Assembly (NCBI GenBank): GCA_964534465.1
Contig: CAZHOB010000003.1
Coordinates: 14,843 to 78,842 of the forward strand
Source: an uncultured Candidatus Saccharibacteria bacterium
GTDB taxonomy: Bacteria > Patescibacteriota > Minisyncoccia > Phycocordibacterales > UBA2100
Reading direction: 5' to 3'
Length of the DNA stretch: 64,000 nt
Part shown: positions 10,653 through 62,722 of the stretch, piece by piece
How positions within the stretch are numbered: the first letter of the stretch is position 1
Layout of the letters: every line of letters begins with the position of its first letter
Made by a program: the position numbers and the translations under genes
The notes under the pieces: model-generated
Seen by the model: only the letters and a program-made list of their open reading frames with translations
Databases searched by the model: none
Told to the model about the DNA's origin: nothing

Positions 10653-12700
10653 GCTTTCATTCTAACCTCCTTTTCCAAAGCCGTAATTTCGTCTCGAATT
10701 AATGCCGCTGTCTCGAAGTCGAGACCGTCGGCCGCTTCATGCATCTGCCGGCGCTTCTCGCGGATCAATTTCGTCATATCGCCACCGAATGCTGATGCGT
10801 CCATCTGTGCAAGCTCGGATACAGCGCGCTTACGCGATCTCTCGATGTCCGCAGTGATGTCGTGTATCTTCTTTTGTATCGTCTTCGGAGTGATGTTGTG
10901 GGCTTTGTTGTAAGCCATTTGTTTCTCGCGGCGGCGGTTGGTCTCACCTATCGCGCGCTCCATCGAGCCAGTCATCTGATCAGCGTACAGAAGTACGCGG
11001 CCGTGCACGTTGCGCGCGGCGCGGCCAATGGTCTGAATAAGCGATGTTTCGCTGCGCAGAAATCCTTCTTTGTCGGCGTCGAGAATTCCGACCAGTTCTA
11101 CTTCGGGAAGGTCGAGTCCTTCGCGCAGGAGGTTGACGCCGACGAGCACGTCGAAAATACCCTTGCGAAAATCCCTTAATATCTCAATGCGCTCAATGGT
11201 AAGTACATCGCTGTGCACGTAGCGCGCCTTGATACCCCTCTCCGTGAGGAATTGCGTGAGATCCTCGGCCATTTTCTTCGTAAGTACCGTAACCATCGAA
11301 CGCGCACCGCGCTTGGTTACCGCCTCCGCCTCGGCAATGAAATCTTTAACCTGCCCCTGATATTGACTTTCGTCCGTAACATTTTCTTGTTGTGCAAGCT
11401 TAGCTTTCACAACAGTGGCTGAAACTATGGGTCGGACGATTATCTCGGGATCGACAAGACCTGTGGGACGGATGACCTGCTCTACAGGCATGCCACTGCG
11501 TTCCAGTTCAAATTTTGAGGGCGTCGCCGAAGTATAGAGCGTCTGACCGATGCGTTCTTGAAATTCTGCAAATGTGAGCGGCCTGTTGTCCACCGCACTT
11601 GGGAGACGGAAACCGTGCTCGACGAGTGTCTCTTTGCGTGAACGATCGCCCGCGTACATTGCGCCTATTTGCGGCACCGTTACGTGCGATTCATCGATAA
11701 TGAGGAGAAAATCCTTGGGGAAGTATGAGAGCAACGTATAGGGCGGCTCGCCGGGCTTTCGCCTGTCGAAATGTCGCGAATAATTCTCAATGCCGTTACA
11801 AAATCCGAACTCGCGTATCATCGCGATATCCTGTCGCGTGCGGCGCTTGAGACGCTCTGCTTCGAGGATTTTGCCTGCGGCGTTCAACACTTTTAGCCTA
11901 TCCGCAAGCTCCTGCTCGATATCGGCGAGCGCGGCCTCGAGCACATCTTTGGGTGTCACGTATTGTCTCGCGGGAAAAATGAATATCGCATCGTGCTTTG
12001 CGGAGATCGCGCGGGTCATTGCGTCGATCTCTTCAATTTTGGAAATTTTGCCACCGGTCAGGTCGACGCGATAGACGACGCGCTCGCTCGCCGGCATGAT
12101 CTCTACGGCCGCGCCGAGCGCGCGAAATGTGCCGGGCTTCAGGTCGCCGGTCACGCGCTCAAAATAGATCGAAATGAGTTTTCGGGTCAGTGTAGCGCGA
12201 GTCATCCGCTCGTCCTTCGAGAGTTTCAAATTCACTTTTTCATATTCGACCGGACTCCCGAGGCCGTAGATGCAGGAGACCGAAGCCACCACTATCACAT
12301 CTTTGCGTGTAAGCAAAGCCTGCGTACATGCATGACGTAAACGTTCGATGTCTTCATTTATCTGCGCTTCTTTCTCGATGTAGGTATCAGTAACAGGCAC
12401 GTACGCCTCCGGTTGGTAGTAGTCGTAATACGAAACAAAATAATGCACGGCATTGTCGGGAAAAAATTCACGATACTCTGAGGCGAGCTGCGCAGCGAGC
12501 GTTTTGTTGTGCGCGACGACGAGCGTCGGCCTCTGCGTCTTTTCTATGATGTTGGCCACCGTGAAGGTCTTGCCCGAGCCGGTCACGCCAAGGAGCGTCT
12601 GGTCCTTTTTGCCAGCTTTTAAGCCATTATAGAGCGCCTCTATTGCCTTCGGCTGATCGCCGTCGGGCTTGTAGTCGGATTTGATCTTGAACTTCGCCAT
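10649..12700 (-). CDS. uvrB: Excinuclease ABC subunit B
   Basis: MAKFKIKSDYKPDGDQPKAI start. Helicase motif I TGSGKTF. UvrB beta-hairpin region. C-terminal UVR domain (ETAALIRDEITALEKE). Confidence 0.95.
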   Translation of the reverse strand: MAKFKIKSDYKPDGDQPKAIEALYNGLKAGKKDQTLLGVTGSGKTFTVANIIEKTQRPTLVVAHNKTLAAQLASEYREFFPDNAVHYFVSYYDYYQPEAYVPVTDTYIEKEAQINEDIERLRHACTQALLTRKDVIVVASVSCIYGLGSPVEYEKVNLKLSKDERMTRATLTRKLISIYFERVTGDLKPGTFRALGAAVEIMPASERVVYRVDLTGGKISKIEEIDAMTRAISAKHDAIFIFPARQYVTPKDVLEAALADIEQELADRLKVLNAAGKILEAERLKRRTRQDIAMIREFGFCNGIENYSRHFDRRKPGEPPYTLLSYFPKDFLLIIDESHVTVPQIGAMYAGDRSRKETLVEHGFRLPSAVDNRPLTFAEFQERIGQTLYTSATPSKFELERSGMPVEQVIRPTGLVDPEIIVRPIVSATVVKAKLAQQENVTDESQYQGQVKDFIAEAEAVTKRGARSMVTVLTKKMAEDLTQFLTERGIKARYVHSDVLTIERIEILRDFRKGIFDVLVGVNLLREGLDLPEVELVGILDADKEGFLRSETSLIQTIGRAARNVHGRVLLYADQMTGSMERAIGETNRRREKQMAYNKAHNITPKTIQKKIHDITADIERSRKRAVSELAQMDASAFGGDMTKLIREKRRQMHEAADGLDFETAALIRDEITALEKEVRMKA

Positions 12701-14092: not shown

Positions 14093-14193
14093 CTTTATAC
14101 CACACGGCGAGAGCAGCAGTGGAGCTGTTTTTAGAGACCCCGCAGGCGGCTGCCGAGCATCCGAGGAATTTTTCAGCAGAAAAATTCCGTGCT

Positions 14194-14583
14194 CTAAAAA
14201 CTGTCCCGCTGCTGCTCTCGCCGTCTCACCTCCCCCTCATCCATCCCGAAATGATGCGCGAATTCGTGCCAGATGGTTTCGGCGACGACATCGGCCACAT
14301 CCATTCCGTCTTCTTCTGCAGCTTCTTCGATTGGCAATTGGTAGAGCGTGATGGTGTCGGGCAAGGTCGCGCCAACGCCGTAATACTCGCCGCGCGCGGA
14401 GAGCGGAATGCCGCGATAGAGACCGAGCAACGTTTCGTCGTCTTCCAGTCCCTCTTCTTTGCGCACTTCTTCCGAAGGCAACTCCTCTATTAATAGAGCG
14501 ACGTTCTTTATCTTCTCCCGTACCCATTGCGGTAATTTTTCGTAACCTTCGGCGACCAATTTTTCGAATTCCGCACGCTTCAT
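14194..14583 (-). CDS. Small zincin-like metallopeptidase-family protein
   Basis: HExxH motif in WHEFAHHFGMDE near C-terminus. Acidic ~129 aa protein typical of minimal zincin-like family. Confidence 0.5.
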   Translation of the reverse strand: MKRAEFEKLVAEGYEKLPQWVREKIKNVALLIEELPSEEVRKEEGLEDDETLLGLYRGIPLSARGEYYGVGATLPDTITLYQLPIEEAAEEDGMDVADVVAETIWHEFAHHFGMDEGEVRRREQQRDSF

Positions 14584-22179: not shown

Positions 22180-22230
22180 ACCACATTTAATAGTTGTGAA
22201 AGCTAAGCTTGCACAACAAGAATACAAAAT

Positions 22231-23457
22231 ATGAGAACTGTCGATATTTTACGGGAAACATATACGTCGCTATCGGCCAACAAGACGCGGTCGAGTTTGA
22301 CCATCCTCGGCATCGTCATCGGCATCGCGTCGGTCATCGCGATGGTATCCATCGGCACGGGGGCATCCAACACCATTTCATCGAGCATAGAATCCCTCGG
22401 CTCGAATCTCATCATGGTCATGCCGGGGCAATCGCGCGGTGGGCCGGGCTTTGGCGCATTCGGCGGTCGTGGCGGTGCAAAGACGCTCACGCAGGCCGAC
22501 GAAGAAGCTATCGTGCAGCAAGTCGCAAATATCGCCGCCATCGATCCCGAAGTGAACGGCCGCTACCAGATCACCGCAAAAGGGACGAATACCAATACGA
22601 GCGTCACCGGCGTAACGAGCGCGTATACGCGTGTACGCAATATGGATATAGACGAAGGTTCGTTCATCACCGATCAGCACACCGCTTCCGCCGCCAAGGT
22701 AGCGGTGCTCGGGCCGACGACGCGTGACGACCTTTTTGGCGTCGGCGCGGAAGCCGTAGGCCAGAGCATCCGCATCAACGGTCTCGAATTCAAAGTTATC
22801 GGGATCACGAAATCCAAAGGTGGCACCGGTTTTGGCAATCAGGACGACGTCATCTTTATCCCCGTCACCAGCGCGCAGCGCTACATGTCGGGCGATCAGT
22901 ATCTCTCCACCATCGCCATACAGGCGCAAAACACCGGCGAAATGACGCAAGTACAATCCGACATTACGACGCTTCTCCTCACACGCCACAAGATATCCGA
23001 TCCGACGCAAGCAGACTTCACTGTGCTCAATCAAAACGACATCCTCGCGACAGCGTCCGGAGTCACGGCCACGCTTACCTATCTGCTCGCGGCTATCGGC
23101 GGTATTTCGCTTCTCGTCGGCGGGATAGGCATTATGAACATGATGCTGACGACCGTGACCGAACGCACCAAAGAGATCGGGCTGCGCAAAGCGATAGGCG
23201 CAAAAAATAAAGACATAAGCACGCAATTCCTCGCCGAAGCGATAGCGTTCACACTTATCGGCGGCGTCATTGGCATCGCGCTCGGCTGGCTTATTTCATA
23301 CGGCATCAATCTGACAGGCACGGTGAAAACGAGCGTCTCGCTCTCATCAGTGCTCCTCGCATTCGGCGTTTCCGCTGCTACCGGCATCATCTTCGGCTAC
23401 TACCCCGCGCGCAAGGCCTCCCAAATGAATCCCATCGAAGCACTTCGTTATGAGTGA
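22231..23457 (+). CDS. ABC transporter permease, FtsX/MacB family
   Basis: N-terminal TM. Large periplasmic MacB_PCD-like domain. C-terminal FtsX 3-TM bundle (..LLVGGIGIMNMMLTTVTERTKEIGLRKAIGA..). Confidence 0.85.
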   Translation: MRTVDILRETYTSLSANKTRSSLTILGIVIGIASVIAMVSIGTGASNTISSSIESLGSNLIMVMPGQSRGGPGFGAFGGRGGAKTLTQADEEAIVQQVANIAAIDPEVNGRYQITAKGTNTNTSVTGVTSAYTRVRNMDIDEGSFITDQHTASAAKVAVLGPTTRDDLFGVGAEAVGQSIRINGLEFKVIGITKSKGGTGFGNQDDVIFIPVTSAQRYMSGDQYLSTIAIQAQNTGEMTQVQSDITTLLLTRHKISDPTQADFTVLNQNDILATASGVTATLTYLLAAIGGISLLVGGIGIMNMMLTTVTERTKEIGLRKAIGAKNKDISTQFLAEAIAFTLIGGVIGIALGWLISYGINLTGTVKTSVSLSSVLLAFGVSAATGIIFGYYPARKASQMNPIEALRYE

Positions 23458-23503
23458 GCGATGGGATGGGGTGGTTGGGGCTTACTAGATAGTTGAATAG
23501 AAT

Positions 23504-23953
23504 ATGGACAGTAAATTTATCGGTGCGCTTATCGTGGTCGCGCTCGTTGCGGGAGGCGGAGGTTATTTTGCGGGGACAAAAAACGCCGGCGCGCAGAGCG
23601 GCCCGCAATCGGGTCAGCGAATTTTTACGAGAAACGGCGGCGGAGGTCGCTTCGGCGGCGCAGGTGCGGCATTCGGCACGATAGTGGCCAAAGATGCGAC
23701 ATCCATAACTGTGCAGCTCATGGGCGGTCCAAATGCTTCTTCAACGAACGGAAGCGCGACCGGCTCCAAGATCGTGCTCTACAATACGACCACGGAGATC
23801 GGGAAAACAGTGACCGGCGCGGACACTGATCTCAAAGTCGGAGAAAATGTCGTCGTCAATGGTTCGGCAAATAGCGACGGCTCAATCACGGCACAAATGA
23901 TACAGATCCGTCCTGCCGGAATGAACCAGCCCTTCGGCCGCAGACAGCAGTAA
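23504..23953 (+). CDS. Small membrane-anchored protein, paralog 2 of 19190-19642
   Basis: N-terminal TM (FIGALIVVALVAGGGG). Gly-rich linker. Domain homologous to 19190-19642. Confidence 0.5.
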   Translation: MDSKFIGALIVVALVAGGGGYFAGTKNAGAQSGPQSGQRIFTRNGGGGRFGGAGAAFGTIVAKDATSITVQLMGGPNASSTNGSATGSKIVLYNTTTEIGKTVTGADTDLKVGENVVVNGSANSDGSITAQMIQIRPAGMNQPFGRRQQ

Positions 23954-23994
23954 AAAGTGATGCCGCGGCGTATTGCTCGCCGCGGCATAGAAAG

Positions 23995-24321
23995 CTAGTC
24001 AAAAGAAAGTTCTGCCGGAAAGTGCTTGACCTGGCGACCATGCTCCTCGTGCGGCCAATCAATGAAGACTGCGGACAGTGAGTCATGTACTGACAACCTC
24101 AGAAAATCGTATGTTTCAGTTGCCGTTGGTCCATCGAGGTAGATGTCCGTAAACATCACCGAGTGATCTATCCGCCGGACCTTGCCCACGATAATAGTCG
24201 GGGACTCGATGATGCCCCCACCATCAGGGATCGTGATCGTAACTACGCGACCGATCAGCTCCTTCGATGGCGGCAATTTTACTTTTGCCAATTCCGCGTC
24301 CAGCGCTTCCCGAGAACCCAT
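23995..24321 (-). CDS. Hypothetical protein (108 aa)
   Basis: RBS ACGGAGGAACGC before ATG. Confidence 0.45.
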   Translation of the reverse strand: MGSREALDAELAKVKLPPSKELIGRVVTITIPDGGGIIESPTIIVGKVRRIDHSVMFTDIYLDGPTATETYDFLRLSVHDSLSAVFIDWPHEEHGRQVKHFPAELSFD

Positions 24322-24378
24322 GGCGTTCCTCCGTTTGTTGCCGGAACGTACAATACAACATTATTGCTTGGGTCGCAA

Positions 24379-24443
24379 GAGCGGAAACAATTGCGTCTCG
24401 TGCGCAGGTTTGTTCTCAAGGAAGGCGAAGGCGTTCGGAGACG
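24379..24443. repeat. Diverged duplicate of the lysS 3' terminus (remnant copy)
   Basis: 65 nt about 95% identical to 24701-24766. On the minus strand still encodes FAFLENKPAHETQLFPLLRPKQ + stop versus lysS C-terminus FAFLENKPAHETQLFPLLRPRN + stop. Confidence 0.7.
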
Positions 24444-24491
24444 TATAAAAATAGCCGCGGCATTTCTGCCGCGGCTCGGATCGATCTGCTA

Positions 24492-24641
24492 TTAACACGG
24501 GCAGCGAGGGCCCGGGAGGTCACCGGGAGCATGAGGTGCCGGGTGTTCCGGAATGACATAGGGACCCGAAACGATCATGGCCCCGAGAAAGGCAACCGCA
24601 AAAAACCAAACAATGACTCGTGCGACGGTAACCTTATTCAC
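24492..24641 (-). CDS. Small membrane peptide (49 aa) located between the lysS 3'-end repeats
   Basis: GTG start preceded by strong RBS GGAGGAAATCGC. Hydrophobic helix VARVIVWFFAVAFLGAMIV then Pro-rich tail ending PRCPC. Confidence 0.35.
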   Translation of the reverse strand: MNKVTVARVIVWFFAVAFLGAMIVSGPYVIPEHPAPHAPGDLPGPRCPC

Positions 24642-24681
24642 GCGATTTCCTCCGAAGTTTTGAGTCTTTCGCAATTATACC

Positions 24682-26124
24682 TTAATTTCGAGGACGTAAA
24701 AGCGGAAACAATTGCGTCTCGTGCGCAGGTTTGTTCTCAAGGAAAGCGAAGAGGCGTTCGGAGACGCCGAAGCCAAAGGCTGGCGGCATGCCGTACTCCA
24801 TCGCGCGAATGTAGTTTTCGTCGAGCCTCTGGGCTTCGTCGTCGCCGGCGTCGCGCAGGCGCTGCTGCTCTTCGAATCGCGCACGCTGGTCGAGCGGGTC
24901 ATTGAGCTCGCTAAAGCCCTTTCCCATTTCGCTACCGGCGATGATGACCTGCAGGCGCTCCACCGTCTCGGGCTTTTGCACGAAGCGCTTAGCGAGCGGC
25001 TCGAGAAATACCGGAATGCCGACCAAGAACGCGGGGCCGGCGATGGTTTTGCGCACGGATTTCCAAAGGTGGTCGACGGCGCGGGCTTTGTTGAGTTTTT
25101 CCCCTACCTGAATCTGCGCGTCGCGCACGGCCTGAATAGCTTCGTCTTCGGAGCAGGCGATCGGGTCGATACCGAACTTCTCTTGGATTATTTTGCAAAA
25201 ATCGATAACTCCCCACTCTTCGGCAAGGTCCACCGTGTGCCCATTGATCTCAAAGGTGTATTTGCCGTAAACTTCTTTGGCGAGATGACGATACAGGTCT
25301 TTGACGAAGTCGCCGCCTTTTTTGAGGTCGCTAAAAGCTTCGTAACTCTCGAGCTGTGTGTAATCCTGCAAATGCTCGCGCGACTGGCCTTCGTTGCGAA
25401 AAATGCGCCCTATTTCAAATACCTTTGGATAGCCGGCGACAAGAAGCTCCTTTTGCCACAACTCGCCGGCGGAAATGCGTAGATACACATCAATATCGAG
25501 CGCATGGTGATGTGTTACAAAGGGTCGCGCGTCGGCTCCGCCGGGTGATGATTCGAGCACCGGCGTTTCCACTTCCAGAAATCCACGCGAAAGATAGAAT
25601 TCGCGCGCCGCCTGCCAAAATTTGGCGCGACGCTCGAACATCGCCCGCGTATCAGCGTTGAGGAGTATTTCGAGATATCGCTCGCGCAATCGCAGTTCTT
25701 CGTCTTTGACCCCGAAGTGTTCAGATGGAATGGGCAAAAGCGACTTGGCGAGCATTTTCCATTCCTTCACCTTCAGCGATTCCTTTCCGCGTTGCGTTTT
25801 GAACGCGGCACCTGTGACCTCGATAAAATCACCGATATCTACCGCTTGGGAAAAAAGGTCGAACGCAGATGCGCTCATCTCAGACTGCTGCAAAACCACT
25901 TGACCACGGGCTCCATCGAAGAGGTCGGCGAACATTATTCCGCCTTGGCCACGTAATGACATCACGCGCCCCGCCAGGACGCCATTTTTACCCTCCCCAA
26001 AATCTGCAAAAAAATCCGCGATTGAAGTGTCTCGTTCCGTGCTCGCGGGATACGCATCCATTCCCGCAGCCTTCAAAAGGTCGAGTTTCTTCAGTCTTTC
26101 CGAGCGAATATCCGCCTCCGACAT
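24682..26124 (-). CDS. lysS: Lysine--tRNA ligase (class II)
   Basis: N-terminal OB anticodon-binding domain. Class II motifs (..FLEVETPVL.., ..GIPVFLEPLAKRFVQKPETVERLQVIIAGSEMGKGFSELNDPLDQ..). Confidence 0.9.
   Translation of the reverse strand: MSEADIRSERLKKLDLLKAAGMDAYPASTERDTSIADFFADFGEGKNGVLAGRVMSLRGQGGIMFADLFDGARGQVVLQQSEMSASAFDLFSQAVDIGDFIEVTGAAFKTQRGKESLKVKEWKMLAKSLLPIPSEHFGVKDEELRLRERYLEILLNADTRAMFERRAKFWQAAREFYLSRGFLEVETPVLESSPGGADARPFVTHHHALDIDVYLRISAGELWQKELLVAGYPKVFEIGRIFRNEGQSREHLQDYTQLESYEAFSDLKKGGDFVKDLYRHLAKEVYGKYTFEINGHTVDLAEEWGVIDFCKIIQEKFGIDPIACSEDEAIQAVRDAQIQVGEKLNKARAVDHLWKSVRKTIAGPAFLVGIPVFLEPLAKRFVQKPETVERLQVIIAGSEMGKGFSELNDPLDQRARFEEQQRLRDAGDDEAQRLDENYIRAMEYGMPPAFGFGVSERLFAFLENKPAHETQLFPLLRPRN
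24701..24766. repeat. lysS 3'-terminal coding segment (functional copy of the direct repeat)
   Basis: Partner of 24379-24443. Lies inside the lysS CDS just before its stop codon. Confidence 0.7.
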
Positions 26125-26698: not shown

Positions 26699-27241
26699 TT
26701 AGCTCATCAGATGTTCCCACACGAGCGCCGCAGCATGAGCGTCGAAGAGCGGGTTGTGAAAACGGCGCGGCCCCGAGCAATCTGGCTCGAGATCGTGCTC
26801 CCCCATATATTTCTCGATATGGTGGATGTCGTCCCAACCTCGCGCCCGCATGAGCGTGCAGACTTCGTGGAGCGGCGAGGGTGGCAAATTCCAACGCTCT
26901 TCGTACTTTCTCAAGATGAGCCTGTTGAAGAGTGCGGCTTCGCCGCCTTGATTTCCGAAATACGCGATGCAATCGCGTCCCTGCCGATTCCGCACCCAAA
27001 AATCCCAGAAATCTTCCTCGAGCTCGAAGACCGTGTCGTGCGTGAGCGGCATATTTTCTACGACGTGCACTATGTTCTGATTGACCCAGTCCGACACGAG
27101 CGCCGGCGTATGGGTCCGCCCTTGGAATTCCTTGATGGTCTTCCCTCCATCGCGCACGACGGCGGCGATGGCAAACGGTATGTGGCCGTGAAGGCGATCG
27201 GTCTCGACATCAACGCTGACTATCCCGCGCACGAGCGGCAT
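26699..27241 (-). CDS. 3'-5' exonuclease, DEDDh (DnaQ-like) family
   Basis: Exo I motif SVDVETD. Exo III H-x4-D (FHNPLFDAHAAAL). About 180 aa stand-alone. Confidence 0.55.
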   Translation of the reverse strand: MPLVRGIVSVDVETDRLHGHIPFAIAAVVRDGGKTIKEFQGRTHTPALVSDWVNQNIVHVVENMPLTHDTVFELEEDFWDFWVRNRQGRDCIAYFGNQGGEAALFNRLILRKYEERWNLPPSPLHEVCTLMRARGWDDIHHIEKYMGEHDLEPDCSGPRRFHNPLFDAHAAALVWEHLMS

Positions 27242-59554: not shown

Positions 59555-61936
59555 TTAACGGCTGATTAACTTCGCCAATCGATGGATAGCTTCAGCGAGG
59601 TCAACACCCTTGCCGAGTATTGGTTTCCACAGATCGCCTTTTTGTTTGAGTCGCTTTGCCATGGTCTTGATCGTAAATTTGGATGGATCGAGTCCTTTGC
59701 CTACTTCCCTCCACTCGAGCGGCGTAGAGACGGTGGCGCCTGCGTGCGGCCGCACGGAGTAGGCGCACGCGAGCGTTTGACCCAAACTGTTCTGCAAATA
59801 ATCGAGGTATATCTTCGCTTTTCGCTTTTTCGGATTGCGCTCGATAGATGTGATTTCCGGTAGGCGCAGGTGAACGATTCGCATTAATATTTCCGCGAAC
59901 ACGCGCACATCCTTATATTTATATCGCGCTCCAAGCGGTACGCAGACGTGGAGGCCGCTCTTGCCCGAAGTCTTTATCAAATGATTTTCGCACGCCACAT
60001 CGAGCACGTCTTTCACAACGAGCGCCACTTTGACGAGATCGCCAAAGGGGCGCTCGTGCGGATCTAGGTCGAGTATCATGTAATCGGGTTTTTCGAGTGA
60101 ACCGACGCGCGAGTTCCACGGATTAAGCTCTATGCAGCCAAGATTGGCCATATAAAGGAGCGTCTCTTTGTTGTTACATACGATGTAATTGATGAAGTCG
60201 TTGTTGTGCTCCGACCACACCTTGGTCCTTTCAACGAAATCCGGCAATTTTGTCGTCCAGTTCTTGTGATAAAAACTCTTGCCCATGATACCGTTGGGGT
60301 GCCTGTTGAGATTCTCCGGCCGGTCTTTGAGATACGGTAAAAGTATCTCGGCTACGCTTTCATAGTAAGCAATAAGGTCGCCCTTGGTGTAACTCTCTTT
60401 CGGCCAGAACACTTTGTCCAAGTGGGTCAATTGCGGCGTATATCGACCTACGAGGTCGATAGTGCTCGTTCGTTGTATTTCTTTTTTGACCTCGCTAGGT
60501 TTTTTATCTATGCGCAATCCGGCATAGATAGGATGTCGCATTCGCCCATCCGGTGTCCATTCCGTAAATTTTATCTGAGCTACGTACTTGGGTTTCACCC
60601 ACGTAATGGGACTGTTTACCGGCACCTCCTCGGCCACGGTGGGCTTTATCACGGCGATCTTCTGCAATTTTGCACGAAGTTGCTTCAGCTCGGTGTCGGT
60701 AAAGCCGCCACCGCTGTGCCCTACGTAACGCAACTGGCCATTTACATAAGCACCAAGGACCAGCGAGCCCAAATGCTTGCGCGAGCCGCGCGGCTCGGTG
60801 TAGCCGATGATGATCGCCTCCTGTTCGTGAACACTCTTGATCTTGAGCCACTCATCGCCGCGCACACCTTCGCGGTAGCGGCTCGACGCGTTCTTGGCGA
60901 TCATTCCCTCGCGACCCTGCCGACGCATTTTCTGAAAAAATTTCCCGCCATCGCGCATGACGTGTTCGCTGTACCGCAATACGTCGTCTTTGGGGATGAT
61001 CTTTTGCAAAAGGTCTTTGCGCTCGTGGAGTGGCTCACCACGCAGATCGCGCCCGTCGAGATAGAGCAAGTCAAAAATTTGATAACGAAGCGGGGCGGCC
61101 TTCTCCTGATACTGCTGCAGTGTATGAAAATCCTCGCGGCCATTACGTATTGCGATGATCTCGCCGTCGAGCACGCAATCATGCTTGATGCGCTTCAGAG
61201 AATCGACGACTGGCTTATAGATATCGGCAAATGACTTGCCATTGCGCGAATAGAGTTTGACCTCGCCGCCCCCTATCTCTGCGATCGCGCGATAGCCGTC
61301 CCACTTCGGCTCAAAATACCAGCCGTTTTTGTCGAACGGCTGGTCTACAGGCTTCGCCAACATCGGTTTTACATGCTGCGGCATTGTATCCTCACCACTT
61401 CGCCGCAAACGCAACTTTGTTGCATTAGTGGAATATTCGTCTCGCTCTTTGACGAGAAGCCACTGGTTCTGACCGCCACTTTTCATTTTTATGAGGGCAA
61501 ATCCACCCTCCAGTTTTTCTCCCTGTAGAAGAAATTTTATTTCGCCTTTATGAAGCCCGTTTTTTATTTTTTTTCGAGTCTCTTCAGGATCGGCGCTGTC
61601 CACACTTGAATAGACGCCCTTGTCCCATGTCTCCACCTTCCCCGCCCCATAATGACCTTTGGGAATGGTTCCTTGGAACTTGGCGTATTCGAGCGGATGG
61701 TCTTCAGTCATTATGGCCAAACGTTTGTCGGCGGTATCCATCGACGGGCCTTTCGGTACAGCCCAGCTCTTGAGCACACCATCGAGCTCCAAGCGAAAAT
61801 CGTAATGCAGCGAGCGAGCGGCGTGCTTTTGTACGACGAAATGGAGCGGGCCTTTTGGATGCGGGCGCTCGTGCGTGCCCTTTGGTTCCGGCGTCTCTTT
61901 AAATGAACGCCGCTTGTTGTACTCGGCAAGAGCCAT
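59555..61936 (-). CDS. ligD: Multidomain ATP-dependent DNA ligase LigD (PE-ligase-polymerase order)
   Basis: N-terminal phosphoesterase domain (..HYDFRLELDGVLKSWAVPKGPS..). Ligase adenylation motif EPKWDGYR. C-terminal primase-polymerase domain (..IELNPWNSRV..LDLDP..). Confidence 0.85.
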   Translation of the reverse strand: MALAEYNKRRSFKETPEPKGTHERPHPKGPLHFVVQKHAARSLHYDFRLELDGVLKSWAVPKGPSMDTADKRLAIMTEDHPLEYAKFQGTIPKGHYGAGKVETWDKGVYSSVDSADPEETRKKIKNGLHKGEIKFLLQGEKLEGGFALIKMKSGGQNQWLLVKERDEYSTNATKLRLRRSGEDTMPQHVKPMLAKPVDQPFDKNGWYFEPKWDGYRAIAEIGGGEVKLYSRNGKSFADIYKPVVDSLKRIKHDCVLDGEIIAIRNGREDFHTLQQYQEKAAPLRYQIFDLLYLDGRDLRGEPLHERKDLLQKIIPKDDVLRYSEHVMRDGGKFFQKMRRQGREGMIAKNASSRYREGVRGDEWLKIKSVHEQEAIIIGYTEPRGSRKHLGSLVLGAYVNGQLRYVGHSGGGFTDTELKQLRAKLQKIAVIKPTVAEEVPVNSPITWVKPKYVAQIKFTEWTPDGRMRHPIYAGLRIDKKPSEVKKEIQRTSTIDLVGRYTPQLTHLDKVFWPKESYTKGDLIAYYESVAEILLPYLKDRPENLNRHPNGIMGKSFYHKNWTTKLPDFVERTKVWSEHNNDFINYIVCNNKETLLYMANLGCIELNPWNSRVGSLEKPDYMILDLDPHERPFGDLVKVALVVKDVLDVACENHLIKTSGKSGLHVCVPLGARYKYKDVRVFAEILMRIVHLRLPEITSIERNPKKRKAKIYLDYLQNSLGQTLACAYSVRPHAGATVSTPLEWREVGKGLDPSKFTIKTMAKRLKQKGDLWKPILGKGVDLAEAIHRLAKLISR

Positions 61937-61939
61937 ACA

Positions 61940-62722
61940 TCATGTGCGAGCAGCTTTCTTTTCGCGCTCGAGGCTGCGGCGGAGCGCTTCCATGATGTCG
62001 CGCATGTCGGTGGCCTCCGGTTCCATTTCCTCTACTTTTATTGGCTTACCCTTGGCTTTCTTCGCAATGATCTTTTTCAGGTCCTCAGTATAAGTATCGT
62101 GGAATTTGCTCGGGTCGAAATGTTCCTGTAGTTGGTCGATAAGCATCAGCGCCATCTCGAGCTCGCGCTTTGAAAAGTCACCCTTCTTCGGAATATGCAG
62201 ATCTTCCGGTTTACGAAGCTCGTCTTCATAGCGCAATCCGATAAGCATAAGTGCATTCTCTTGCGGCTTTACCATGGCGAGGTGCTCTTTGTTGCGAAGT
62301 ACCCACTTGGCGACGCCCACTTTCTTCGACTTTTTCAATGCTTCGCGCAAAAGTACATACGCTTTTTCCGCTTTCGGGTCGGGCTCCACAAAATACGGCT
62401 TATCGATATGATCGCTCGGTATCTCGCTCTCTTCGACAAAGCTCACGATGTCGATGGTCTTGGTCTTGCGAGGCGCGGCTTTCTCAAAATCTTCGTCGGT
62501 GAGTATCACGTAATTTCCTTTCTGGAATTCGTAACCCTTCACGATGTCCTCATATGCCACCTCTTTGTGCGTGAGCTTTGAGATCTTGGCGTAGCTTATA
62601 GGCGCGTGCTCATGCTTGTCGAGCAAGCGGAATTTGAGCGCGCGCTCTTCTGAAGCGCTGTACATTTTGACCGGAATATTGATAAGACCAAATGATATAG
62701 AACCCGACCAGATGCTTCGCAT
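61940..62722 (-). CDS. ku: Ku protein (NHEJ DNA end-binding)
   Basis: MRSIWSGSISFGLINIPVKMYSAS Ku core N-terminus. 260 aa. 3-nt spacing to ligD. Confidence 0.85.
   Translation of the reverse strand: MRSIWSGSISFGLINIPVKMYSASEERALKFRLLDKHEHAPISYAKISKLTHKEVAYEDIVKGYEFQKGNYVILTDEDFEKAAPRKTKTIDIVSFVEESEIPSDHIDKPYFVEPDPKAEKAYVLLREALKKSKKVGVAKWVLRNKEHLAMVKPQENALMLIGLRYEDELRKPEDLHIPKKGDFSKRELEMALMLIDQLQEHFDPSKFHDTYTEDLKKIIAKKAKGKPIKVEEMEPEATDMRDIMEALRRSLEREKKAART

Follow-up and report, generated by a model that had tools for sequence, protein, structure and literature searches.

How does an essential gene come to be followed by a second copy of its own end? This question is raised by lysS, the gene of a class II lysyl-tRNA synthetase (LysRS), in a 64,000-nt stretch of DNA from contig CAZHOB010000003.1, which is called the window here. 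About 75 nt at the lysS 3' end (24692-24766) recur at 24371-24443, with a 2-nt gap and five substitutions. Between the two copies stands the gene of a small membrane peptide, named pep here, and the distal copy is followed by a second small open reading frame (ORF), p108. The feature is real and well resolved. It adds one more case to a type of recombination scar that is already known, and no sign of a dedicated mobile element is seen. The window is chromosomal DNA of the Patescibacteria (Paceibacterota, Kaiserbacteria-like), and the closest LysS proteins (66-78% identity) come from metagenome-assembled genomes (MAGs) so named.

The repeat was examined in several ways. By blastn-short, positions 24701-24766 matched 24380-24443 at 95.5% identity over 66 columns (E 8e-24). 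A repeat search returned two blocks, 24692-24751 against 24371-24430 at 93% and 24752-24766 against 24429-24443 at 100%, and their start-to-start spacings of 321 and 323 imply the 2-nt gap. The identical core of 44 nt (24701-24744 and 24380-24423) occurred exactly twice in the window and in none of 100 shuffles, and the repeat of the lysS end was the strongest repeat in the 64 kb; no third match to this end was seen in the window. The functional lysS reads ...FAFLENKPAHETQLFPLLRPRN and the distal copy ...FAFLENKPAHETQLFPLLRPKQ, each before a stop codon. Three claims of the initial annotation of this DNA were borne out. The lysS end (24701-24766) is repeated about 320 bp downstream at about 95% identity, as blastn-short, the repeat search and the shuffles agree; the distal copy still encodes a lysS-like C-terminus and a stop (LLRPKQ against LLRPRN); and a 49-aa membrane peptide gene ending in PRCPC lies between the copies with a strong ribosome-binding site (RBS), GGAGG, 7 nt from GTG 24641. 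A terminator, T1, also lies between the copies and was absent from that annotation. The distal copy carries a 2-nt deletion near its 5' edge that breaks the frame (the in-frame counterpart of the frameshifted segment reads CTCTTCGCT), has no RBS and is located downstream of T1; it is a lysS pseudogene remnant and is dead. Among 113 fetched loci, two significant copies of the LysS C-terminus were found in the window only.

The pattern of differences between the copies carries most of the argument. When the copies were aligned in the lysS reading frame, all five substitutions (GCT/GCC, CTT/CTC, TTA/TTG, CGT/CGA, CCT/CCC) fell on third positions and were synonymous; 23.6% of the possible single substitutions in the compared codons are synonymous, so that five of five has P ~7e-4 under random mutation. 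The substitutions were also clustered: one lies in the first 64 aligned sites, which reach as far as the core does, and four lie in the 10 sites that come next (Fisher 8.5e-4). Counted by third positions, 1 of 22 differed to the left of the breakpoint and 4 of 4 to the right (3e-4). Beyond the 10 tail sites the last two codons differ (RN against KQ, each before the stop), and then homology stops. The same protein motif in 38 relatives served as the comparison set. Their best match to the 44-nt core was 40/44 and the mean 34/44, and their third positions differed from those of the window by 50% on average in the left part and by 80% in the tail. Because all substitutions are synonymous and in third positions, both the tail of the functional gene (tail A) and that of the distal copy (tail B) evolved while terminating a working lysS. 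Because the left 64-66 nt of the two copies are near-identical where relatives vary widely, they share a very recent source. Judged from these alignments, tails A and B come from lineages that are roughly as distant from each other as the relatives sampled, at the level of different genera, and both endings are known from LysS C-termini of relatives (RPRN and stop in locus L001, RPKQ and stop in L084). A sharp recombination breakpoint is thus seen at 24700/24701, equivalent to 24379/24380, and neutral decay of a duplicated copy cannot yield the observed pattern.

The second line of evidence came from the comparison with relatives. LysS of the window, which has the tRNA-synt_2 domain (6.5e-54) and the tRNA_anti-codon OB anticodon domain in Pfam, shares 78-85% amino acid identity with LysS of Paceibacterota/Kaiserbacteria; the best match was 78% in genome collections and 84.5% over a partial gene in metagenomes. 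Syntenic relatives have a right flank in common, a DUF5666 gene and then an FtsX/MacB permease (L001, L003, L004, L086, L090). In three of them there is no insert: lysS and the convergent DUF5666 gene have 21 nt in common in L001 and are separated by 3 nt in L004 and by 13 nt in L086. The slot is filled by a 215-aa PAP2 gene in L003 and by a 67-aa ORF in L090, and other genes lie 3' of lysS in L002, L084, L085, L089 and L091. From this comparison, the lysS-DUF5666 interval is a variable slot. Empty lysS sites, for which the initial annotation had proposed to look in related genomes, thus exist in L001, L004 and L086, at a genus-like distance (78-85% LysS identity); no strain-level relative (>95% identity) was found in any collection searched. 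Compared with the empty sites, the extra material in the window consists of pep, the lysS remnant and p108. The pep segment had been taken as the extent of the event, and this part stands, but p108, which had been placed outside it, is polymorphic against the empty sites as well. Likewise, the claim that an insertion at the lysS 3' end supplied a replacement terminus agrees with the synonymous-only, clustered differences and with the empty sites. The view of the repeats as attL/attR-like is not supported.

The terminators provided the third line. T1 reads AGCCGCGGCA-GAAA-TGCCGCGGCT, then ATTTTTATA (also written ATTTTTATAC). Its hairpin (24453-24476) has a 10-bp G+C stem with a T-run (-22.9 kcal/mol, z -3.6). 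T2, at the other end of p108, reads TGCCGCGGCG-AGCAATA-CGCCGCGGCA, then TCACTTTTTAC. The palindromic stem GCCGCGGC is common to T1 and T2. This 8-mer occurs eight times in the 64 kb, four of them in T1 and T2, and is absent from the remaining terminator-like hairpins of the window, about 25 in number; the alignment of T1 with T2 scored above 1000 of 1000 shuffles. The most similar C-terminal LysS fragment (L084, 89.6% over 77 aa) also ends in KQ and a stop, and 29 nt past this stop it has a hairpin (L084 260-290) with 15 nt, GCCGCGGCGAGCAAT, in common with T2; the downstream genes differ. It seems from these sequences that the terminator travels with the lysS end. Because T1 resembles T2 and the L084 hairpin, the right end of the pep unit looks like a native-type lysS-locus terminator and not like the end of an element. 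On the minus strand, the order is lysS terminus, leader, pep, T1, the 73-nt copy of the lysS terminus running to LLRPKQ and stop, leader, p108, T2 and the stop of the DUF5666 gene p149 (Table 1). The locus would best be described as two tandem modules, each made of a lysS terminus, a leader, a cargo and a GCCGCGGC terminator, set head to tail. The similarity between leader A, of pep, and leader B was marginal (6/1000 shuffles) and came mainly from the stop codon, RBS and start codon, and it was not used as evidence.

Table 1. Features of the lysS 3' region (window positions).
Feature	Position	Strand	Description and basis
lysS, class II lysyl-tRNA synthetase	24682..26124	minus	Intact, 480 aa, ends ...LLRPRN and stop; ORF call
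Proximal repeat copy	24692..24766	minus	In frame, functional lysS terminus; 44-nt identical core 24701-24744
Tail A	24682-24700	minus	CTT TTA CGT CCT CGA AAT TAA; end of functional lysS
Leader of pep gene	24642..24681	minus	40 nt; TATAAT 24674-24679, GGAGG 24649-24653, 7-nt spacer
pep	24492..24641	minus	49-aa single-pass membrane peptide, GTG start, stop 24492-24494, MNKVTVARVIVWFFAVAFLGAMIVSGPYVIPEHPAPHAPGDLPGPRCPC; ORF call; conserved family
T1	24444..24476	minus	Intrinsic-terminator-like hairpin; the novel joint with the displaced piece of lysS falls at its final base, 24444
Distal copy	24371..24443	minus	Displaced lysS 3' fragment, pseudogene remnant; core 24380-24423; stop 24361-24363
Tail B	to stop 24361-24363	minus	CTC TTG CGA CCC AAG CAA TAA; end of distal copy
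Leader B, upstream of p108		minus	39 nt with GGAGG; sequence read
p108	23995..24321	minus	108-aa ORF, cargo of the second (displaced) module; GGAGG 6 nt upstream
T2	23960..23988	minus	Hairpin and T-run; directly adjoins the p149 stop codon
p149	23504..23953	plus	DUF5666 protein, convergent with lysS; Pfam and synteny; conserved right flank of the variable slot, MacB-type ABC operon upstream

How could such a structure have been formed? In homology-facilitated illegitimate recombination (HFIR), one end is joined through homology and the other illegitimately (PMC3240628), and the same logic has been proposed for displaced 3' ends at type VI secretion system (T6SS) and Rhs loci (PMC5361080). We favour the view that two allelic lysS-tail modules were stacked here by an HFIR-like C-terminal displacement that is independent of a recombinase, an explanation to which we give about an even chance; both its enzymology and the direction of the event are what we infer. 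A donor segment from a diverged relative, made of the last seven codons of lysS with the stop, an RBS, pep and T1, would have been joined to the resident lysS. On the left, a homologous crossover would have taken place within the conserved end of the lysS coding sequence, just 3' of the 44-nt core (24700/24701), and the right joint would be illegitimate, linking the end of the T1 T-run to lysS position -75 (24443/24444). At this right joint, between the T-run and CGTCTCC, an overlap of at most 1 nt is possible. The resident terminus, p108 and T2 would have been pushed downstream by the 321-bp insert, and lysS would have stayed intact on the imported tail, with the old 73-nt terminus left dead and 2 nt lost since. 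The duplication could be made by a circularised fragment that integrates Campbell-style, or by a broken lysS end that is extended with the donor as template, after which end joining links it to the other chromosome end. No element-encoded integrase would be needed.

End joining is available to the organism because LigD-Ku nonhomologous end joining (NHEJ) is encoded in the window. At 59555-62722 (minus), a full-length LigD (793 aa; phosphoesterase, ATP ligase and primase-polymerase domains) is followed by Ku (260 aa), which together make a complete NHEJ pair. Such a pair is notable in a reduced Patescibacteria genome and bears on the formation of illegitimate joints.

As in displacement-type loci, the 5' body of lysS is conserved, the alternative 3' tips come with cargo, and a 73-nt distal stub is kept. 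A polymorphic toxin tip with an immunity gene was not found at this locus; the gene is that of LysRS, and both tips encode the conserved ...FPLLRP(R/K)x end. Regarding direction, L084 (KQ and stop with a T2-like hairpin) would favour tail B and T2 as native, and L001 (RN and stop with a syntenic flank) would favour tail A as native. The 44-nt repeat could still delete the pep module by homologous recombination, and lysS would then regain tail B.

Several points weigh against the displacement that we propose. The arrangement is found in one genome only, and neither the donor (lysS, pep and terminator) nor an isogenic empty site is among the relatives. Simple HFIR with linear DNA replaces recipient DNA, so that a duplication of 64-75 nt needs a circular fragment, a sister chromosome, or break-induced copying plus end joining. 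The similarity of T1 and T2 is based on about 30 nt. The T1/lysS joint has no second assembly, as the Logan contig L103 covers the p108 side and stops at 24369. Finally, a site-specific integrase acting in trans would leave an equal architecture.

This last point leads to a miniature or decayed integrative element, a circle with a 75-nt lysS-like attP, pep and T1 that integrated site-specifically, its integrase being supplied in trans or deleted and the repeats being attL and attR. We regard such an element as doubtful. Its architecture is that of e14 in icd, with an extended gene, a displaced icdC and synonymous end differences (PMC13626634). Direct repeats of the gene 3' end flank the insert, the replacement terminus is functional and the divergence synonymous; the frameshift lies in what would be the P-arm part of the distal copy, and the part for the working terminus differs synonymously only; and empty sites exist in relatives. 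What is not found is a recombinase gene in or near the insert, recurrence, or a free form. The insert contains pep and T1 only, and no Pfam match to an integrase, recombinase or transposase domain (Phage_integrase, Resolvase, rve, DDE) was obtained in it or in about 58 ORFs of the window that the scan covered, which left out about 20 smaller ones; the earlier statement that no integrase is present holds within this scope. The repeat pattern occurred once per contig in 22 metagenome matches and never in IMG/VR. Neither the cassette nor, outside lysS genes, the repeat was seen again in 80 genome loci, 22 metagenome contigs and IMG/VR, and the search for further copies of the 24444-24700 segment that the initial annotation had proposed returned none from genome, metagenome or viral collections. 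The homologues of pep lie in unrelated contexts, without lysS or integrases, and T1 is homologous to a native lysS-locus terminator. Moreover, it would take special pleading to explain an attP that agrees with the host lysS at 21 of 22 synonymous sites but whose tail is saturated. With no recombinase, no recurrence and a native-type terminator at its right end, the decayed integrative element or non-autonomous cassette of the initial annotation is unsupported. Insertion of an insertion sequence or a miniature inverted-repeat transposable element was rejected, as terminal inverted repeats are lacking in the insert (a search of 23800-25200 gave no inverted-repeat pairs) and a duplication of about 75 nt far exceeds the target-site duplications of transposases. 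An integron cassette array was also rejected, as no integrase was found and short perfect stems with T-runs stand in place of attC sites.

A tandem duplication in situ, from lysS -75 to the terminator, with later divergence of the copies and replacement or degradation of the interior of the first, would account for the presence of the lysS terminus and the terminator twice each, and the junction of the T1 end with lysS -75 is exactly the b/a joint of a tandem duplication. We still find it improbable, because the distal tail would have been free to decay and yet all its differences are synonymous third-position ones; the divergence is sharply mosaic and not uniform (Fisher 8.5e-4), and pep and p108 have no detectable similarity. 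It is also scarcely credible that the structure is an assembly artefact in which two strain variants of the lysS end were chained via the shared 44-nt core. The sequence does come from a metagenome assembly, with LysS, p108 and their neighbours on a single NCBI contig of 78,981 nt. The sole independent contig (Logan SRR8931233_858, L103) is 100% identical to 24369..22947, starting just past the last repeat mismatch and ending mid-gene at 22947; a start at the edge of the repeat implies that the assembler branched there. With k=31 assumed, this start is 10 nt beyond the expected repeat-induced break, and the core by itself would interrupt such a graph about 40 nt upstream, which hints at an extra sequence variant at position 24370 in the Logan sample. 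However, the stretch ...TATTTTTATA followed by CGTCTCCGAACGCC--TTCGCC, where the terminator runs into the frameshifted lysS, cannot come from two intact alleles and must be in the reads. A chimera would thus affect only what follows the distal core, and not the duplication.

Three known systems come closest to the locus. Studies have shown that, in e14/icd, the host gene keeps a 3' end supplied by the insert, with the icdC pseudogene downstream and mostly synonymous differences, and that recombination would regenerate a chimeric functional gene (PMC13626634). Like e14 or phage 21 in icd of E. coli, the locus has a housekeeping gene with an insert-supplied 3' end and the old end kept as a C-terminal pseudogene. 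Unlike e14, a prophage of 15 kb that encodes an integrase and is excised on SOS induction, the lysS insert has 321 bp and one peptide gene, no recombinase was found in the scanned 64 kb, and its distal end is homologous to the native terminator of the locus. With Rhs, contact-dependent inhibition (CDI) and T6SS arrays it shares a conserved body as the homologous anchor, a new tip with cargo that displaces the old one, a stub that is kept, stacked modules and the lack of an integrase. Those arrays have toxin tips with immunity genes under conflict-driven selection, whereas the lysS anchor is essential, its tips are functionally equivalent, and a membrane peptide and an orphan ORF make up the cargo, in two modules of one genome. 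Integron cassette arrays similarly hold small, mostly uncharacterised ORFs in the same orientation at one site, each unit ending in a hairpin. In contrast to integrons, with attC sites of 57-141 nt, R''/R' cores and IntI, the hairpins of the lysS locus are terminators with perfect stems of 10-11 bp and a T-run, there is no IntI, and what recurs at the boundary of the units is a housekeeping gene's 3' end.

No new kind of mobile element is revealed by this locus. The scar shows, at single-nucleotide resolution, how a small accessory gene is gained beside an essential gene in a streamlined and uncultivated bacterium of the Candidate Phyla Radiation (CPR) without breaking that gene: the incoming DNA carries its own copy of the last lysS codons. 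Because the divergence is mosaic and confined to synonymous changes, the two ends date to different lineages, and the locus is direct evidence of inter-lineage recombination in Patescibacteria at the lysS-DUF5666 slot. A wider proposal is that the lysS 3' end is a recurrent gene-capture site without a cis integrase, where small-gene modules, each with a lysS terminus and a GCCGCGGC hairpin at its bounds, are stacked and open to exchange or deletion by recombination via the repeat. We think this very unlikely; if true, an essential aminoacyl-tRNA synthetase gene would serve as the anchor of a platform that resembles an integron. In annotations of this DNA, the distal fragment needs a label as a lysS pseudogene remnant, and the gene of the 49-aa peptide needs to be included.

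The cargo of the first module belongs to a small protein family. The pep product has one transmembrane helix (best 19-residue Kyte-Doolittle window 2.39). A word-indexed search with pep gave no match, and phmmer against 1.84 billion representatives returned four small homologues (P0006, P0007, P0009 and P0010; 44-80 aa, 45-52% identity, E 4e-6 to 2e-4). A profile search of 5.8 billion proteins recovered the same four only, with profile E ~1e-22. The five members share the single helix, 14 invariant columns and the tail G-x-Y-x-I-P-x-(H/Y)-P-x4-P-(G/S)-D-L-x-(S/G)-P-R-x-P, and because the homologues have this helix and invariant tail in common, pep is a real conserved gene. This is a previously unnoticed family of small membrane peptides with five members across distant phyla. 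The homologues lie on soil-metagenome contigs of 55-65% GC, unlike CPR DNA. Three of the four are directly upstream of an EamA-like membrane protein of 319-344 aa (L104 3723-5060; L105 2085-3471; L111 107-1005), with which they form a conserved two-gene module, and this suggests that the peptide might assist a transporter as its accessory partner. In the window, pep has no EamA-like partner and stands alone. The 44-aa P0006 (L110 3-704) lies between a DUF4326/phrog_464 gene and an Ala-rich ORF of 117 aa, a context that is possibly phage-like. None of the four homologues was near lysS or integrases, which also answers in the negative the suggestion of the initial annotation that the family might go with integrases elsewhere, and the family was not found in IMG/VR, GenBank phages or PLSDB plasmids.

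The idea that pep is a type I toxin was rejected, as there is no sign of an antisense RNA and the partner of its homologues is an EamA-like membrane protein; neither pep nor p108 had a toxin or immunity match in Pfam or PHROGs. For p108, no homologue but itself was found, with no match in Pfam, PHROG or IMG/VR, and its single-sequence AlphaFold2 model (pLDDT 53) was unusable. GC and GC3 of pep and p108 were not clearly atypical and gave no compositional sign of foreign origin. A sigma-70 consensus scan of the region found no promoter at the scan threshold, and no terminator was found in the lysS-to-pep stretch; pep is probably co-transcribed with lysS and terminated at T1.

Core functions surround lysS in the window, namely uvrABC, tyrS, murB, ddl, a sigma factor, a MacB-type ABC operon, Fur, ZIP, GDH, IMPDH, and LigD with Ku. 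The segment 17502-23953 holds a sigma-70 family gene, a small ORF, a DUF5666 gene, an HlyD-like adaptor, an ABC ATPase, an FtsX/MacB permease and the second DUF5666 gene (p149), and is a MacB-type export operon with one DUF5666 paralogue on each side. A perfect 30-nt inverted repeat with sharp edges (11384-11413 and 22193-22222) has its second arm in this operon, in the spacer between the ABC ATPase and FtsX permease genes. The first arm is in frame within uvrB and encodes VVKAKLAQQE between the conserved ...IVRPIVSAT and GQVKDFIAE...; we take it to be part of an insertion of about 18 aa relative to canonical UvrB.

Just upstream of tyrS, a 33-nt inverted repeat (14104-14136 and 14192-14224) is 88% complementary with a 55-nt spacer; no Rfam family, such as T-box, reached the threshold there, and tRNA-Ala was the sole RNA family match in the Rfam scan of the region and the 64-kb window. 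Directly upstream of lysS, an ORF of 180 aa (26699-27241, minus) had no Pfam or PHROG match. Read by eye, the motifs VDVETD and ...NPLFDAH... in this ORF suggest a DEDD-type 3'-5' exonuclease.

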